Positions 13,051 to 52,966 are shown, numbered from the stretch's first letter. The stretch is DNA of 64,000 nucleotides from Eledone cirrhosa (GCA_964016885.1 OZ024745.1:53630001-53694000), one strand, 5' to 3'. Made by a program: numbers and translations. The notes: generated by a model from the sequence alone, not told the origin.

Positions 13051-13769
13051 GTCTCCTCTCTCTCATGTTTCCTCTCTCTCTCATGTCTCCTCTCTCTCTC
13101 TCATGTCTGCTCTCTCTCTCTCTCTCTCATGCCCCCCCCCCTCTCTCTCTCATGCCCCCCCCCCTCTCTCTCTCTCCCTCTCTCTTGTCTCCCCTTCTCA
13201 CTCTTATTTCCTCTCTCTTTCTCTATTATATATATCTCCGTAGTTCGTATGTTTACAAGAAACAAATGTTGTTATTACTTGTATGAATTACTTAGTGTTC
13301 CTCCTTTACAATAGTCAGTTGTTTACTGAAACATTAAAGGGCCGGCTGGATTAAGAGGTCTGACAACATTTCACTTTTCTGTTCACATTGAAAGGAAAAG
13401 TCCTCTAGAGAGAACCTTTCCGTCCATTCCTCAATTATCGATGACATGAATTACCTGTAAAATACTGACTCCACAAAATTATTTATCTACCCTACGTAGC
13501 ACCCTGGACAAATGTCTTCTACCATAGCCAGATATCATTCTGAGCCTTATATCTCGAAGTTTCCTTTTGTAATCAGATTCCGACATCGATTCAAAAAGCT
13601 GCGCCACGTTCTCTCAATGTGGGTGCACCTATGTCTTGATTTCACTCCCTTTCTTTCTCCTCTCTCTCTATCTCTCTCCACCACCACCATCACCACTCTC
13701 TCTTTCCATCTCATCTCTTTATTTCACTCACATCTTTCTTTTCCATCACAACTACCACCCTATCTATAA

Positions 13770-13807
<38 letters not shown>

Positions 13808-14121
13808 CATATATATATGTATATATATAAAAACAAATAACGAAACGAAATTAAATTTCGTTTCGTTTGTAACTCACTTTTGTATGACTGACGCTTAAAC
13901 AATTGAGTTAAAAATGTACATCCACATATGTATACTGAAATACTAGTATGCATATGAATACACACACGTGTACATATGTAGATGTACCGAGTTTTTCACT
14001 GGTCACTTTACTGTGAGTGTCCAGCTATTCTGTATGTAAACACACAGACAAACCGGTTTTTAGAGTCATACTGGTTTTTGAGGAAACACCTTTCCTCTAT
14101 TCTCCAGAAAGCCAGACAAGG

Positions 14122-14166
14122 AATATTGGACTAGTTTCGATGTTGTTACATCTCATCAGCAATATT
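14122..14166 (-). ncRNA. Minimal type I hammerhead ribozyme
   Basis: Reverse complement of the HHR at 14414-14458. Confidence 0.9.
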
Positions 14167-14413
14167 TACCCATCTTCCGGCCTTTCTAGAGAATCGTAAA
14201 AGCACATATCGTTATATGCTTTTTCTATGAAAATTAGTAGTGGGCAGACTAATTTGCATAGAGCGTGAGTACGTACCGGTTTTTTATCGTCTCCGTTGAA
14301 CCGGTACGTACTCACGCTCTATGCAAATTAGTTTGCCCACTACTAATTTTCATAGAAAAAGCATATAACGATATGTGCTTTTACGATTCTCTAGAAAGGC
14401 CGGAAGATGGGTA

Positions 14414-14458
14414 AATATTGCTGATGAGATGTAACAACATCGAAACTAGTCCAATATT
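14414..14458 (+). ncRNA. Minimal type I hammerhead ribozyme
   Basis: aatattg-CTGATGA-gatgt-aaca-acatc-GAAAC-ta-GTC-caatatt: canonical core, 7-bp stem I, 5-bp stem II, palindromic stem III (actagt), GUC site ending at 14451. Confidence 0.92.
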
Positions 14459-14879
14459 CCTTGTCTGGCTTTCTGGAGAATAGAGGAAAGGTGTTTCCTC
14501 AAAAACCAGTATGACTCTAAAAACCGGTTTGTCTGTGTGTTTACATACAGAATAGCTGGACACTCACAGTAAAGTGACCAGTGAAAAACTCGGTACATCT
14601 ACATATGTACACGTGTGTGTATTCATATGCATACTAGTATTTCAGTATACATATGTGGATGTACATTTTTAACTCAATTGTTTAAGCGTCAGTCATACAA
14701 AAGTGAGTTACAAACGAAACGAAATTTAATTTCGTTTCGTTATTTGTTTTTATCGTCTCCGTTGAACCGGTACGTACTCACGCTCTATGCAAATTAGTCT
14801 GCCCACTACTAATTTTCATAGAAAAAGCATATAACGATATGTGCTTTTACGATTCTCTAGAAAGGCCGGAAGATGGGTA

Positions 14880-14924
14880 AATATTGCTGATGAGATGTAA
14901 CAACATCGAAACTAGTCCAATATT
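14880..14924 (+). ncRNA. Minimal type I hammerhead ribozyme
   Basis: Identical to 14414-14458, 466 nt downstream. GUC site ends at 14917. Confidence 0.92.
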
Positions 14925-15151
14925 CCTTGTCTGGCTTTCTGGAGAATAGAGGAAAGGTGTTTCCTCAAAAACCAGTATGACTCTAAAAACCGGTTTGTCT
15001 GTGTGTTTACATACAGAATAGCTGGACACTCACAGTAAAGTGACCAGTGAAAAACTCGGTACATCTACATATGTACACGTGTGTGTATTCATATGCATAC
15101 TAGTATTTCAGTATACATATGTGGATGTACATTTTTAACTCAATATGTATA

Positions 15152-15183
<32 letters not shown>

Positions 15184-15186
15184 GTG

Positions 15187-15353
<167 letters not shown>

Positions 15354-27177: not shown

Positions 27178-27193
27178 GTGTGTATATATATAC

Positions 27194-28765
27194 TCCAAGG
27201 TCACGGGAATCACTCCCGCGCAGATAGAAGAACACATCAACGCCGCCTGGACCAACATCTGCGACCGGCGGAAGCTCCCGAAGAAGCTGAGATACAACCT
27301 CCTCACGAGGAACAGCAGCCTACCGGCCTTCTACCACCTCGTGATAACACACAAACAGGGACCCGATCTGAAGATCAGGCCCATTGTATCGAGCGTGGAA
27401 GGACCACTCTACAAAATTTCATGGCTCCTAGCCAGAATACTCAAACCCATCTTAGACACCTTGCCGGGACACGTTAACAGCTCCGAGGAGGTGTTGAAGC
27501 GCCTGCATCAAATGGATTCCGACACCAGAAGGAATAACAGATATGCCTTCAGCCTTGATGTAGTCGCTCTCTACACCTCGGTCCCGGCACTCCCGGCCGT
27601 CAATATACTGATGGAACGCGTCCAATCCACCGACCTACACTGCTTCGGGCTCACCACCACTGACATCCACCAACTCCTATCCATCGTCGTCGACAACATC
27701 TACTTCGGATTCCTTGACCAAACATACCAACAAACCTCGGGATTGCCCATGGGATCAAGCCTGTCGGGTGTGCTAGCGATCTCTTACATGGACAACCTCG
27801 ATCGCAAGGCACTCAACGCCTGCCACCCCAACGCCGTCGCCTTTTTCTCAAGGTATGTGGACGATATCCTCATCCTCACATCTTCCCAAGACACGGCGAA
27901 CAGAATCTATGAGACGTTCAACAACACGGACGAGAACATTGACTTCAGTGTTGAACACCCCAACGAAGACGGATCACTTGCCCTCCTCGACTTCCGAATC
28001 AACATCACGGAACAGGGAAGAATTCACTGCAACTTCTACCGAAAGGCAGCCTGCAGGGACCTGTTCGTTCACTACAAGTCCGCCCTCCCTAACAGTGCCA
28101 AAAGAGGATACATCACGGACGAGATCGCGCGAATCAAAAACAGATGCAGCGATCCCGCGAGTGGTGTTACTCATACCAAGCGATTCCTCGAGGTGCTGGA
28201 GACGAACGGGTACCCTACCTCGCTCACAGACAGAGTAGGAGACACCAGACCCAAGAGACCCAGAGGCACCCAAGGCAAGTGCTTCCTTAAAATTCCACAC
28301 CTGGGCGAGAATACCACCAACGCTATCCGCAAGGCTATACGGAGGGAGGGCCTCGACATCCACCTGGCCCACTCGGGCCCCTCCCTGCGAAGATGCCTCT
28401 CCAGGAAACCCGGGAAATCAATTGACGCGTGCTCCCTCAGAGACTACCCGATACGCCATGCGAACTATTGCCTACGCACATACGTCGTGTATAAGATAGA
28501 ATGCAACGAGTGCAACCAATACTATATAGGTAGCACAATCCAACCTTTGCACATCCGGATCAAGGAACACACTAAAATCAGGGCCTCGTCTTTCCGGAAA
28601 CACATAGACAAATGCGGAAACAAAGACGGAAGGCCCATTGTCACAATTCTAGCGACTGAAAGAAACGTCGGCACGTTACGTATCAAGGAAGCACTTTTTA
28701 TCAAACGCCTAGAGCTGCAAATAAACAATCGATCCGAGAGAAGCGAAATGAGTTGGCTGGTTTAA
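27194..28765 (+). CDS. Penelope-like reverse transcriptase / GIY-YIG endonuclease (N-terminally truncated)
   Basis: [37 protein letters not shown]; [29 protein letters not shown]...KEALFI...INN. The upstream part of the ORF-track call (from 26762) is microsatellite. Confidence 0.93.
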
Positions 28766-28819
28766 GTTAACAAACGATGCAGCAACACACGCACACACAC
28801 ACACAAGCGAGACAACAAC

Positions 28820-28850
<31 letters not shown>

Positions 28851-29180
28851 GTAGCATTCCACCATACGAACATACTACACTGCCAATACAGAGGAACAAG
28901 GCAACAACACACGCACACACACACACTCAAGCGAGACAACAGCACACGCACACACACACACAGTAACATTTAACAAACAGGCAGAGAATGGACTGAAAGC
29001 TAGCGCCACCCCACTCCCACAATTGAAAGAACTACTTCGGCCGCTGACCTCTGCCCGACCGACCCCATTTCATGCGCACGCGCGCTCTGCTGAATACCTC
29101 AGATATTCAAAACAACGAACAGTGGAGGACGCGTTTCGTACCTTTCCGACAGACAACCCTTCCCCCACCCCGGAAAAAAA

Positions 29181-29216
29181 CCCCAGTTGATGGATGTGAA
29201 TCCGAAATATATAGGG
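29181..29216 (+). ncRNA. Variant or degenerate hammerhead in the Penelope 3' region
   Basis: ccc-CAGTTGA-t-ggat-gtga-atcc-GAAA-tatATA-ggg then attaaa. HHR topology is intact but the core differs from CUGANGA at two positions. Confidence 0.45.
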
Positions 29217-47526: not shown

Positions 47527-49513
47527 ATGGCTAATTCCCCTGTGCACGAAGCAGCTGAAAGCCTTCCTCACAAAATAACACCTCACACCGACACCACCAT
47601 TGTAAATGTTACTACGTTTGCCAACACAAAAAAAAATATAAGCAGTAGCAATATTTTAAATTTGTCTCAGGCAGACATTCATTTCCCGCCATTACCAATG
47701 ACTGCAGGTGTTAAACCCTCCACCACCACCACCACCGCGACAACCACCACCACCACCACCACCGCGACAACAGAAACAAAAGAAGAAAAAAATAAATTAA
47801 CTCGTGACGTCGAAATGAAATCAAGCAAAATGGACTCTTCCCCACCAAAGACGACTGACGTCACCACCACCACAACTGAAAATAAAATTAATATTAACGA
47901 TAGCAACAACAACAACAATGACATTATAAAACCGACCCTCAGTTTCGCCATCGTAGCAAAACAATTCGAAGCGTTCACGGTAACTCAAGAAGATTTAGAA
48001 AATGCCAAACAAATGGTAAAGAAAGATGGGTACAGGGTCAGCCTCACCCCCCACCTAATAAAATGGAGCATCGGCGCCTGTGCACCGTGTCGTATAGAAC
48101 AATAAATGTAAAATCGCGCCGAGTGGAACGGGCATCCGAGTCCCAAATCCAAAAAGCTTTGGGACATGTGTGGGCAAGAAAAACCCACATCAGACGTGGG
48201 CAAAAGTATGGAACCGTGGATGTGTTCTTTGAAACACCAGAGGAGGCTAGAGAACACTCCATGGCCCCATTAAAAAGTGACGACCTCACACTCGTCCTAA
48301 GCTATTGTGGCCAGAGACTCGTAAAGATCAGGGTGACCCACGTTCCACCGGCCATCGAAATTCCCTGGCTAATAGCGGCTGTCCTCGCCGGCATCGAAGC
48401 CAACACGAAAATAATAGCAGTAGCAAAAGAAAAGCAGGAAAACTGGTCCGGATCTGGGATGGAGCTCCTGATCCAAGCGGACCAAAAAAGCATTGAGGAG
48501 ATCCCAGAGGTAATAGACCTCACTTACGGCAGCCACCTCACGGTAATTGTCGAGGGCAGAAGACCTAGGTGTGTCGTTTGTGGTGAAGGAACCCACCTAA
48601 GGGCTTTCTGCCCTCAGGCTAAAAGGTTGAGGCCACCTCTCCTACCCACCCCAGTGACACAACCATCAACACCACCAGTAGCAGAGATGGCAGCAACAAC
48701 TGTAGCAGCAACAACAGAAGCAACTATAACAGCAACAACCCCAGCAACAGTAGCAAAACCAACACCACTACCACCACCAGCAAAACCAACACCACCACCA
48801 CCCAACGCTTCAGAACTAGCACCAGCGCCTACACCATCCACCACACCACAACCAAAACTAACGGCTGTGGAGGATTTTCCACTCCCCGGCCTATCACAAC
48901 TGGAGACAGATTGTGACGACGAGGAGTGGGAAACGATATCCGGAAAAAAAAAAAAAGAAACCAAAAAAGAAAAAATTCTCTTCCTTCCCCCTCCAAAAAC
49001 AAAATACAGAGGGAAACAAATAAACTAAGAAACAAAAAAGTTAGGACAGATATGCCACCATCCACACCAGCATCACCAACCCCATCAACCCAAACACCAA
49101 CACCATCACCATCATTAACTCCTACACCACCATCACCTACACCACAAAAGTCACCAAAATGCGAAACAGAAACAAACCCACAACAAACGCAAACAAAACA
49201 AAACAACCAAAACGATACACACTACACAGCATTAAATTTGAACAACAAGCAATTATTGCACTACATCCAACACAACACCAGCATCACAGAAAAAGACTAC
49301 ACAACAACCCCAAAATTCACACCACCTCCACACATACAAATCACTCGCATCACACAGAAAACGTACATGACACTAAAACAAAAATTCCCCAAAGACATCG
49401 GAGACTTCCGACAAGCACTCTCCAGGAGGATTTATAAGGACATCATTCCTGAGGAGGCCACAAGCAGTGAAAAGGATGGAAAAGCCGTCCTTCCCCTACG
49501 AGAAGTAAGGTAA
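47527..49513 (+). pseudogene. LINE ORF1 (frameshifted; CCHC zinc knuckle, Pro/Thr-rich)
   Basis: Three overlapping ORFs (47527-48105, 48063-49028, 48926-49513), EGRRPRCVVCGEGTHLRAFCP, frameshifts at A-runs. Confidence 0.8.
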
Positions 49514-49547
49514 GTGGTCTTTCCCATCTTTTCCACTCCTTTTCAAC

Positions 49548-52500
49548 ATGACCTCACTCAGAATAGGCAGCATAAATGCGCGTGGCTTGGGATCGTCATG
49601 GAAGCAGGGCCACCTGCTCAACGACCTCAGGTCACTAAACATAGATGTAGTGGCCATCAGCGAGACCAGAATCTCCGAAGCACAGGCTTTCGCACCGATC
49701 TTCGGCGGCTACGATGTGTACGCATCTCCCAGCCGTCCGGGATCGGGGGGAGGAGTTGCTGTGCTTTTTCGGAGAGGTTTGGATCTTGCCATACGGGCCA
49801 TCTTCCTGGACCCAGAAGGTAAGTTGGTGGTGCTGGACGTGACCAGCGGAGACGGGCAAGCTTTCAGGTTAGTGGCCGTCTATGCCCCGACAGGAGCAGG
49901 GCGGCCTGATTTCTTCCGGCGTCTGGAGACCTTTCTTGGAACGTCCCGCTCTTTAGTGTTAGTGGGCGACTGGAACGGGATCTTAGATGCACGCTGGGAT
50001 TGTGTGGGATTAGTGGATAGGGAAGGAGGGTGCAAGAGTCTCACCAACCTGCTCAGACGTTTTGAACTGTCTGACAGGTACCGAATGGATTTCCCGAATG
50101 TACCAATGTGGACTTGGACAAATCGCATAGGGTCATCCAGATCATATCTAGATAGAGTATTTTGTAGGGAAATAGATAGGTCTAGCATAGGCTGTCCACA
50201 ATTCAAGATAGTCAGCTACACGGACCACAAATTCGTGATCTGTGTGCTTGACTTAGATAGGCTTCATAGACGAGGACCCGGCTACTGGAAGTTAAACGCG
50301 TCCTTACCAGCGCGCAAGGCCTACAGAGACCGGATTAGCGAACTAGTTAAGCGGGCGTTGACGGGGGCCATCGTTAACAACAAGTGGTGGTTTGCTCTGA
50401 AAAGAGCAATTAGAATAGAGTCCATTAGGTTTAGTAAGACTTTAGCAATAGAGAAAAATAGAGCAGAGGGAGAATTAGTTAGAAAATTAGATGAGGCGCT
50501 TAGCAAAGGCATCGCGACCGACGTACTTGCGGCGAAATTGGCCCTTGACCAATTCTTCAATGCAAAGCACGAAGGCTGCGTTGTCAGAGCTAGGGTGCGT
50601 GCTCTCAGACACGAGGGGACGAAAGCCGTTCAATGGGTCCGAGTGGCGGAGGCGCGTCGTGGCAACAAAGCCACGATCCGGTCTTTGGTGGACCACGACG
50701 GGCGCATGCTACTCGATCCCGGGCAAATGTGTGAAGCTTTTCAGCGACACTTCGCTCAACTGTTCGGGGGCAGTGGCGGGCCGGATCGAGGAATGGACTT
50801 TAGTGTCTACCTCGACGGACTGCCGCGGCTTTCGGCCACTGAGGCGGAGTGTTGCGAAAAGCCGATAACAACCGCTGAAGTACGGGATGCAATGACTAGT
50901 TGCACAAGGGGTAAATCGTCTGGTTTGGATGGTCTGCCCTATGAACTTTACGTACAAATGCCAAACTTGTTCGGAGGCCTCTTGGCGGACGTCTACTGCA
51001 ACTGGCAACAGAACGGGAGAATTCCCAGCTCTGTGAGCCGAGGAGCGGTGGCGCTGCTGAGAAAGGATCCGAACAAGGGGGATAACATAGATAATTTTAG
51101 GCCCATAACTCTGCTAAACACAGAGTTCAAGATTTTGGCCAAGGTGCTAGCAAAGAGGTTGGCGCTTGTCGTTGGTGGTCTGGTGGGAGAGGCACAGACA
51201 TGCGCCATTCCCGACAGATCCATCCACGACAACCTCCACCTCATGCGATACATCGTAGAGAGGGTAGCTAGGGAACCTGGCACGGGTGGGTCTTTGATCA
51301 ATTTAGATCGTCGAAAGCCTTCGATAGGGTCGACCATCGTTACCTAACGGCAGTCCTGAGGGCGGCTGGCTTTGGGCCCGTCTTCAGAGGCTGGATCGCT
51401 GCCATGCACAGCGACATCTGCTCTGTAGTGAGAGTGAACGGTCACCTTTCGGAACCGTTCAACATCATGCGCTCGGTCCGCCAAGGATGTCCCCTCTCGT
51501 CCCTATTGTACGCATTGACTCTTGAGCCATTACTGCACAAACTGGAGACGTTGAGGGGGGTCCCGCGCGAACTAGGATGCGGAAGATCCGTGTCAGCATA
51601 TGCCGACGATGTCACCGTAGTGGTGTCGAACGCCAAACACATCGAGGCGATCGGCACTACACTAAGAGAATACGAAGCGGTGACAGGAGCAATGATCAAC
51701 CAGGAAAAGTCAGTGGGCCTGCAGCTCGGCACCTGGAGAGGTAGGTCCATGCCGTCCAACAGCGTCGTCGGGCGCGGGACGGACGGACCGGTTAAATTGC
51801 TAGGGGTCTGGTTCGGTCCAGACCTCCAGACGGACAAAAACTGGGACGAGGTGACGAGCAGGGTGACTTCTCTCACCCAGAAATGGGCCGAGAGGAAGCT
51901 ATCCCTGAAAGGTCGAGCGGAGGTGGCGAATGCGTACATCGCATCCGTCATCTACTACCGCCTGACCGTCGTACCTTGTCCTAAGCCCCGCCTGACTGCG
52001 CTGGAGCGTTTGCTCTTTCGCTTCTTGTGGAAGGGACGCGCCCCGATGGTCAGGCGGTCCATCTGCTGTCAACACCCGCTACGTGGAGGGCTGGGCATGC
52101 CGTGGCTGATGATGCGCAGACACGCGCTCAGGCTACGACATCTCCACCTCTTCCTCGACGGTGATCAGGTGTGGTCGCCGTTTGCAAGACACGTTTTTCC
52201 CCAGCTCGTCTCCTTGACGGAGCTGCAGTCCTGGGTCAAGCGAAGACCGAGAGGGAGCGCTTGGAGATTGGAATGTCTTCAGGCGCTCACAGCCCTCGAC
52301 CAATCGGGCAATGTGATCGGTGGAAACTCCACCTTGGCGTTCTATAGGGGATTAGTGGAGGGGAAGAGCGACGACGTACTTGGAGAAACTCTAGGCGTCG
52401 ACGAAAATCAACTAGCCAATCTCTTCGGAAGGACTTTCGGGCCGGGGCTTATGGACAACTTCCAGAAATCCCTGGCCTGGCAGTGCTACCGAGGAGCTTT

Positions 52501-52966
52501 GCCAGTTCGGGATAAACTCTACAGGCATGGAGGTGCCGTCAGCCGGGCATGTCCGAGATGCGCGCAGGGCGACGAAACCGTCCTGCACGCACTCGTCCAG
52601 TGTCCGAGCATTGCTGACTTGTGGGTTTATGTCGAACACCTGCTGTCACGTGTAGGACGGATCCAGCTATCAGCTGAGTCCATCGTGAGGATTGCCCCAC
52701 CCCCTTCCTTTAGCCTGGAAGGGCAGGCAGTTTTTATCTGTCTGGTGGCCATGGCGAAAGAGATAGTATGGTGGACACGTTTGAAAGGGCTGAAGACGAG
52801 CACTTACCTCTTCGGTGATGCCCTGATTAACTTTTTCAAATTTCATTTGAAAAGGAAAATCAGGGTAGAGAGGGAAGTGCTCTGTTCCCAGCATTTTGTT
52901 GAAAGATGGGTGAGAGAAGCAAGTATGGCCCGAATGAATGGGCCTTCTCTGAGTATGTGTCTGTAA
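49548..52966 (+). pseudogene. LINE ORF2 (APE endonuclease, RT, C-terminal zinc finger) with a single frameshift at ~51310
   Basis: SINARGL, ISET, VYAP, GDWN, YLDR, YTDH; FRPITLLN; LD(Q)SKAFDRV broken by a 1-nt deletion; RQGCPLS, YADD; CPRC..ETVLHALVQC. Confidence 0.95.

Follow-up and report, generated by a model that had tools for sequence, protein, structure and literature searches.

The window, a 64,000-nt stretch of Eledone cirrhosa DNA, holds an insertion of a 466-nt unit with a predicted hammerhead ribozyme, and the family to which it belongs is almost certainly a real, active-looking non-LTR retrozyme family, added to a known class. The anatomy of the insertions and the A>G changes that they carry point, quite probably, to a rolling-circle mode in which the enzyme of a Penelope-like element (PLE) copies one circle, edited in some cases. 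On balance we favour the fuller reading that each insertion would be the fossil of one ADAR-edited circular RNA, copied from both strands by a Neptune/Nematis-type enzyme, and that the unit would have its own U6-type promoter element.

The first-pass annotation had described three near-identical copies, two in tandem and one inverted, with a single substitution among them, and this was confirmed by comparing the locus with itself at period 466 and in mirror image. The + arm (14281-15144) repeats with one mismatch, at 14333; the minus copy (13827-14281) equals 14299-14753 except at the mirror of 14333, and the second unit matched it fully. A whole unit is found only from cut to cut, at 14452-14917; the three copies as such are all incomplete. 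Of the two arms, the minus copy has the tail and the tandem lacks it (Table 1). We read the substitution at 14333 as a post-insertion mutation. The same C>T change, at unit position 348, recurs in single units of loci L049, L052 and L064, and the position is a mutation hot spot that is not a CpG. The epithet "very young" suits this locus and its subfamily and not the whole family, which spans ~88-100% identity. Elsewhere in the window, a LINE at 47922-52963 (+) comprises ORF1 and an endonuclease-RT frame that continues after a frameshift. An inverted repeat of ~7 kb (37067-44146), whose arms are 88-100% alike and have a 13-bp tandem at their centre (40604-40660), has long AT runs on either side and no long ORF; it is either a true fold-back duplication or an error of the assembly.

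Table 1. Features of the retrozyme insertion, in window coordinates, and example loci of the sister family
Feature	Position	Strand	Remarks
AT microsatellite	13761-13829		(AT)n array, left flank
Left copy, likely target-site duplication	13815..13828	+	12-14 bp, inside AT microsatellite; last 2 bp overlap element end
Tail-bearing arm, ~1.0 unit	13827..14281	-	fixed long end 13827 (unit position 302); 5'-truncated at 14281
PLE-type tail, ~75 nt, with 13-bp hairpin	13827..13901	-	missing from the end of the other arm
Type I hammerhead, minus arm	14106..14177	-	predicted cut between 14129 and 14128, mirror of 14451
U6-type upstream motif ATGCAAATTAG, minus-arm copy	14249..14259	-	
Second arm, 1.85 units in tandem	14281..15144	+	ends at short fixed end, unit position 227/228
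ATGCAAATTAG, likely promoter element	14321..14331	+	motif of U6 and U6atac genes at -76 to -78
Sole substitution among copies, T for C	14333 (unit position 348)	+	period-466 self-comparison
TATA-like box	14364..14368	+	43 nt after motif start
Type I hammerhead 1	14403..14474	+	predicted cut after 14451
Cleavage-to-cleavage monomer, exactly 466 nt	14452..14917	+	predicted cut sites
Short fixed-end sites, unit positions 228 and 233	14679..14684	+	putative second RT start
13-bp hairpin between both fixed-end sites	14713..14741	+	
Long fixed-end site, unit position 302, internal here	14753	+	putative first RT start
U6-type upstream motif, second unit	14787..14797	+	
Type I hammerhead 2	14869..14940	+	predicted cut after 14917
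Right copy, likely target-site duplication	15143..15156	+	start of (AT)n array 15143-15352
Family B examples	L051:2306-3000, L037:3430-4560, L060:7580-8610, L089:2695-3264		

Results of a search with the Rfam model HH9 showed three matches at 37.3 bits (E 6.5e-7), short of the gathering score of 52, which bear out the earlier proposal of a hammerhead with a GUC site and a palindromic stem III in each copy. In hammerhead 1, helix I has 7 bp and a long extension (14386-14420 with 14452-14481), helix II has 5 bp and the loop AACA, and helix III has 2 bp and the palindrome ACUAGU. The GUC sites end at 14451 and 14917, so that the spacing of the predicted cuts is exactly the 466 nt first put forward. 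By the definitions in PMC4209133, the "minimal" form known from PLEs gives way here to a canonical metazoan type I hammerhead with a short palindromic helix III, which is expected to work as a dimer (PMC4209133). The core was intact in 580 of 596 units of the family (family A). When nine rows of A and of its sister family B were aligned, two of them without part of helix I, 6 of 14 pairs had changed on both sides, in few independent events, and 91% of the cells were paired as against at most 46% when the rows were slid. One of these events, inside A, replaced A-U by U-A in helix II and was accompanied by a change of GUC to GUU.

The 466-nt monomer has 36% G+C and, as a circle, is predicted to be 65% paired. 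Its minimum free energy was -152.4 kcal/mol when folded as a circle (z -10.8 against 60 shuffles) and -152.9 as a linear molecule (z -8.2), and its two ends are predicted to pair over ~30 bp. The dense self-complementarity noticed at first sight was recovered on folding the circular monomer, with every hairpin that had been named present in the predicted fold. The circle has no stop-free frame above 70 codons, that is, no protein coding capacity. The label "viroid-like" is apt for this structure alone: the copies are genomic DNA and each unit has one hammerhead polarity; the mark of viroids of the Avsunviroidae, ribozymes on both strands, is missing. Matches to miRNA models were below the gathering score, arose from hairpins and (AT)n, and were discarded.

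The ends of the insertions were fixed. The long end, at unit position 302, was found in 32/32 loci of a first set picked by similarity and in 33/39 of a second, the remaining 6 loci ending at 228/233; in 59 of the 65 long-end loci of both sets (AT)n followed. Both the long end and the border on the far side could be seen at 114 of 141 loci. The opposite arm ended at 220-235 in 75 of these and at a stub of the short site in 13 (together 88/114), and had another end in 6; the remaining 20 lacked an inversion. Run X1 contained the same three fixed ends with ATAT beyond. The fixed ends of two head-to-head arms lie 69-75 nt apart, and this stretch is the tail; the sister family has a related hairpin at the matching place between its fixed-end sites. 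Duplications of 11-14 bp were seen in 12/20 informative cases, with borders blurred by (AT)n. Left out of the alignments were one piece of L033 that overlaps an AT run, the AT-run region of the sister unit, pieces below 80-100 nt or below 88-93% identity, and 4-5 nt at truncated ends. Termination by Pol III was considered as the cause of the long end and rejected: A ends on a T5 run, but B ends 8 nt past a T run or without any.

The insertions thus carry the PLE signature of an inverted 5'-truncated arm, a one-sided tail and (AT)n targets. Endonuclease PLEs have an inverted arm and a tail on one side (10.1101/2021.04.23.441226); for a PLE of the anole, in vitro work places two internal start sites of the RT at the borders of the tail and has each strand of the target cut and then extended (PMC11167929). 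With internal initiation, the template requires no 3' end. The earlier proposal that a Penelope-type RT mobilises the unit in trans is supported, and the insertion signature goes with it.

Across the 3.0 Gb genome, exact matches to the long end with ATAT directly beyond it numbered 1,978, and the hammerhead motif of family A occurred 9,276 times; the reversed-pattern control gave 0 in both searches. Sister family B accounts for 24,121 hammerheads, which brings A and B together to more than 33,000. It is 64-76% alike to A and has the same two-end anatomy, with units of ~420-500 nt and a tail of 64 nt. Its cleavage triplet is GUA, and it contains an internal (AT)n whose length varies. Arms reach 26.8 units, and the longest run has 31 hammerheads in a row without an ORF. 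At least seven further hammerhead families lie in the flanks of L033, L034, L038, L043, L045, L054, L057 and L098, several of them as inverted pairs and often nested in the same (AT)n tracts. The stretch 14281-14770 of the window also turned up, at ~95-99% identity, in three other organisms (runs X4, X5 and X6). X4 and X6 have one contig each, of unit length plus overlap, and X5 has three; tandem DNA would look alike, and these contigs are not taken as signs of expression or of a circle. Among the data sets listed as containing the unit none is recorded as RNA, which speaks neither for nor against transcription. The hammerhead-unit pattern had no match in viral or metagenome contigs.

One way to account for ends, tail and target that are common to PLEs is that the copies are merely truncated pseudo-LTRs (pLTRs) of an autonomous Penelope-like element. 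We therefore consider a positional sample of 70 long ends, independent of similarity (contig 1 from its start, 71 ends less one that was already among the loci studied), in which the whole insertion was visible in 51 cases and the units ran to the edge in 19. None of the 70 long ends, and none of 33 hammerheads of family B, ran into an ORF as its terminal repeat, and the RT + GIY-YIG ORF between pseudo-LTRs that defines an autonomous PLE was lacking in both samples (0/70 and 0/33). The first-pass annotation had named copies that are all pLTRs on an RT ORF as the case against its retrozyme reading, and had asked after copy number and linkage to an RT. With 1,978 long ends in the genome and none of the 70 sampled ones on an ORF, that case was absent and the retrozyme reading is supported. 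Past the long-end site comes the next unit, in arms of up to 31 units without an ORF, and the pLTRs of the PLEs observed carry CCAAT/TATA and minimal hammerheads instead. PLE protein matches lay near 8 of the 70 positional loci, six beyond an AT run and two as direct fusions, and near 3 of the 33 B loci, all beyond AT runs. In favour of truncated pLTRs, a PLE ORF sits directly upstream of a truncated unit at L227, which is outside the positional sample and one of the other 71 loci, and the GIY-YIG candidates examined were 50 of 10,597. On this evidence we hold it exceedingly unlikely that the family consists of such remnants.

PLEs are present in the same genome, with RVT_1 + GIY-YIG frames of 523, 636 and 938 codons. 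No autonomous PLE that shares sequence with the unit was found among the 50 GIY-YIG loci (30 + 20) of the 10,597 candidates. Links to particular PLEs came from junctions: at L273 and L297 a retrozyme arm is fused without an AT gap to pieces of one PLE family, 95-100% identical, and at L256 to another PLE family, at 82%. By their linker cysteine motif (clade by motif, without a tree) the families at the fusions are of Neptune/Nematis type; insertions of these PLEs themselves also lie in (AT)n targets, and their tails measure ~41-50 nt. We read the three fusions as putative template switches within one insertion. They may instead come from later deletion between neighbours, given that the outer ends of L273 and L297 are beyond the DNA examined and that the L256 piece ends without an AT run. 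A Neptune/Nematis-type PLE is the most likely source of the enzyme, an assignment that we make with reasonable confidence; L227 joins a PLE of another clade and points to a second one. The window itself contains a 5'-truncated PLE between (AT)n runs (27190-29425, +), which has the 523-codon frame with RVT_1 + GIY-YIG. It has no sequence in common with the retrozyme unit, and in its 3' region a hammerhead-like stretch near 29188-29215 was left unscored by the descriptor.

Each locus has its own set of variants, fixed across all units of both arms. An origin of the arrays by unequal crossing-over, which would have expanded insertions of one or two units in place, makes different predictions; this route has been proposed in the discussion of bioRxiv 10.64898/2026.07.22.740005. 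In columns covered by at least five units, 287 of 336 within-locus variants were singletons, whereas stepwise duplication predicted 159, and longer arrays were not older (rho -0.30, p 0.02, 62 loci). Thirteen arrays had no variant at all in such columns. There were arrays of 7-14 units without a variant, and both arms can be long and mutually identical, as at L058_L059, where 17 pieces contain 1 variant. Local duplication does take place: L031_L032 has periodic shared variants that mark a later block duplication, L053_L054 has doubletons, and 49/336 variants were multi-unit. As the source of the arrays in general, however, crossing-over is already disfavoured by these data, and we put it down as very improbable.

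The truncation points bear on the form of the template. In 82 loci with two arms, the 5' truncation points (164 in total) were uniform round the unit (KS p 0.16), and only 3 of them fell within 10 nt after the cut. There is no pile-up at the cut, and therefore the template had no end there. Junctions across the cut were clean in the aligned units, and fixed indels lay elsewhere.

Changes private to a locus and fixed in its units showed an excess of A>G when read on the hammerhead strand. A first count gave A>G 19 vs T>C 4 of 29 (p 0.0014), and the positional sample 14 vs 3 of 35 (p 0.007), or 33 vs 7 of 70 with changes in up to three loci. Pooling 139 loci and 789 pieces, we found A>G 44 vs T>C 9 among 86 distinct changes, and 30 vs 5 among those seen in both arms, which are on opposite DNA strands; the both-arm subset of the positional sample alone (6:3 and 13:6) was not significant. 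A replicate of 39 loci that were the nearest neighbours of two queries had no excess (1 vs 1 of 9); these loci were chosen for few differences, a choice that selects against edited copies. Sister family B, whose loci are near-identical, gave no signal, with two rare fixed variants, neither of them A>G. The marks were clustered in few loci, and locus-level tests were modest (p 0.02-0.12): 9:2 (sign p 0.065) and 14:6 (p 0.12) in the positional sample, 14:4 (p 0.03) and 24:10 (p 0.024) in all loci, with Wilcoxon values of 0.009 and 0.002. Most loci have no edit mark.

ADAR favours a 5' U, disfavours a 5' G and prefers a 3' G. The neighbours of the changed A's look ADAR-like, with a 5' U in 21/44 vs 26/104 (p 0.011), a 5' G in 3/44 vs 21/104 (p 0.05) and a 3' G in 11/44 vs 14/104 (p 0.10). 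Sites 314, 315, 336, 342, 383 and 432 recurred as A>G across subfamilies. In the predicted circle, changed A's were paired no more often than other A's (paired fraction 0.58 vs 0.59).

DNA mutation would be strand-symmetric, an RT error would hit one unit, and editing of a multimer would leave a mosaic; marks that are all-or-none in both arms consequently speak for one edited monomer that was copied repeatedly, most simply as a circle. These data suggest that each insertion was copied repeatedly from one, sometimes edited, circular RNA. The same PLE-mobilised element could also have been copied from an uncleaved linear multimer, transcribed from a homogeneous parent array, with a slow or incidental hammerhead. 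An RT that starts internally can do without a circle, such a template would account for arms that are homogeneous and truncation points that are uniform, and the loci without an edit mark, which are the majority, are neutral between the two. In the anole PLE uncleaved RNA was the main substrate in vitro (PMC11167929), and Xenopus dimers cleaved in 1/9 (bioRxiv 10.64898/2026.07.22.740005). Editing of a multimer, however, should mark single units, yet A>G was not enriched among single-unit mutations (22:33 in the 39-locus replicate, 18:22 in the positional sample) or multi-unit variants (8:5). The marks are instead all-or-none with both arms included (30:5), and the pairing of the hammerhead has been kept by compensatory changes. 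We regard the linear multimer as unlikely.

Equal all-or-none marks would also be left by one edited monomer without a covalent RNA circle, if the RT jumped from the 5' to the 3' end of the cleaved molecule or if a DNA mini-circle was rolled. Template jumping is known from non-LTR RTs, and the ~30-bp pairing predicted between the monomer's ends, with helix I holding them together, would assist it. Jumping at the ends fits poorly with stops that are not piled up at the cut site (3/164) and with clean junctions across the cut beside fixed indels elsewhere; circles, moreover, are the form measured for the retrozymes of coral, mussel and axolotl (PMC7229834). This route therefore appears distinctly unlikely, and we retain copying of a covalently closed RNA circle as the preferred reading.

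The best-kept block outside the ribozyme that A and B share is ATGCAAATTAG followed by a TATA-like box, and ATGCAAATTAG is a likely promoter element. U6 genes and the best U6atac gene have the motif ATG(C/G)(A/T)AAT(T/G)AG upstream, at -76 to -78. It is present at the U6 sites C5, C9 and C19, absent at C10 and C2, and found at 1/8 U6atac hits, the top-scoring one. The motif of the unit equals that of U6 at C9 over 14 nt and is kept in both families, and no unrelated hit occurred in 500 kb counted over both strands. It was intact in 481/573 A units; in family B it was found in full in 15/33 loci, and several others were truncated or read ATGCAAATTGG. The spacing from motif to TATA is 42-43 nt, 4-5 bp shorter than the 46-48 nt of U6 genes, and runs of T4-T5 inside the unit would hinder Pol III. 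A U1/U2-type promoter was rejected, as the motif was absent upstream of 15 U2 and 15 U1 loci. With a start 30 nt after the TATA box, transcription would begin near 14394 and reach the hammerhead shortly afterwards. The + arm, with a promoter element and two hammerheads, would thus hold the minimum to yield a monomer. As to the snRNA genes themselves (upstream regions of L165-L194 and L145-L164), those for U1 and U2 have TCAGT near -57 and, near -30, a run that resembles TATA, an uncommon feature of such genes; those for U6 and U6atac have the motif at -77 plus TATA. In several U6 copies of the C19 array (L151-L157), an inserted repeat element separates the gene from its upstream motif.

These elements can be joined in a working scheme. 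The U6-type motif and the TATA box in one unit would start transcription just upstream of the hammerhead. Two hammerheads are predicted to pair via ACUAGU and to cut, which would free the 466-nt monomer, and a host ligase to close the circle. To judge by the A>G marks, ADAR would edit some molecules. A GIY-YIG/RT protein would then nick both strands of an (AT)n target, a chemistry known in vitro for another PLE, and cDNA would start internally, at unit position 302 on one strand and 228/233 on the other. Each cDNA would round the same circle between 0.1 and ~31 times and stop at random, and both would be joined head to head.

The family shows these marks of non-LTR retrozymes: non-coding tandem units that each have a type I hammerhead, low G+C, a self-paired monomer, dispersed insertions, duplications above 4 bp and PLEs in the same genome. 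In the same way, the metazoan retrozymes of coral, mussel and axolotl have non-coding tandem units of a few hundred bp with one canonical type I hammerhead per unit, G+C under 45-50%, a self-paired predicted circle, duplications above 4 bp and PLEs in the same genome (PMC7229834). The U-U pair at the base of helix II in sister family B is as in HHR_Amex2, and the unit of 466 nt lies above the range of 150-450 bp given for those retrozymes (PMC7229834). Circles were measured in that work, where the copying of a circle into tandem DNA by an RT is a hypothesis and a link to PLEs is proposed; here, from DNA alone, insertion anatomy and A>G marks bear on that copying step. PMC7229834 makes no mention of "inverted", "rolling", "cephalopod" or "octopus". 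Vertebrate non-LTR retrozymes share tandem hammerhead units, co-occurrence with Neptune and Poseidon and a proposed mobilisation in trans, the evidence being co-occurrence and pLTR homology, and their arrays are ascribed to local amplification of stray pLTRs (bioRxiv 10.64898/2026.07.22.740005); no mollusc is among its 35 genomes as described in the text. In contrast, we found no homologous pLTR (50 GIY-YIG loci), arrays that look made in one step, and direct PLE fusions.

Endonuclease PLEs share with the present family the inverted 5'-truncated arm, a tail confined to one of the ends, targets that are AT-rich or (TA)n, two fixed internal start sites and a hammerhead with palindromic helix III (10.1101/2021.04.23.441226, PMC11167929, PMC4209133). 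The family differs from them in that it has no ORF, in a tail of 69-75 nt (64 in the sister) instead of 30-40 nt, in a canonical and not minimal hammerhead, in a U6-type motif and not the CCAAT/TATA of this genome's PLE pLTRs, and in both arms being long concatemers. Non-autonomous elements in multiple head-to-tail copies are mentioned for Chlamys (10.1101/2021.04.23.441226), and according to the abstract of the same paper its PLEs with an N-terminal endonuclease are without hammerheads. Newt satellite 2, cited in PMC2220036, is likewise a hammerhead repeat with an snRNA-type upstream element in each unit; its promoter drives Pol II, whereas the motif here is of U6/U6atac type and not of U1 or U2 type. 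A literature search, with most subscription journals and the repeat databases outside it, brought up neither this family nor any such use of edit marks. The evidence on mechanism, namely A>G marks fixed within loci and truncation points that ignore the cleavage site, looks new.

For retrozymes, whether tandem arrays come from a circle or from local expansion becomes testable from a genome alone, and the answer here points to the circle. The family ties retrozymes to the two-site internal initiation known for a PLE enzyme, with candidate partner families named. It also suggests that an RT exists in nature that can turn a circle of 466 nt into concatemers as long as ~14 kb. If the proposed reading is true, these insertions would show directly, in genomic DNA, the step from circle to tandem that has long been hypothesised for the retrozymes of animals, and the element would not be a deleted PLE. 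Should the A>G marks go back to inosines, edits made in RNA would have been written back to the germ line at the scale of two families and more than 33,000 hammerheads, and RNA editing would feed heritable genome change.
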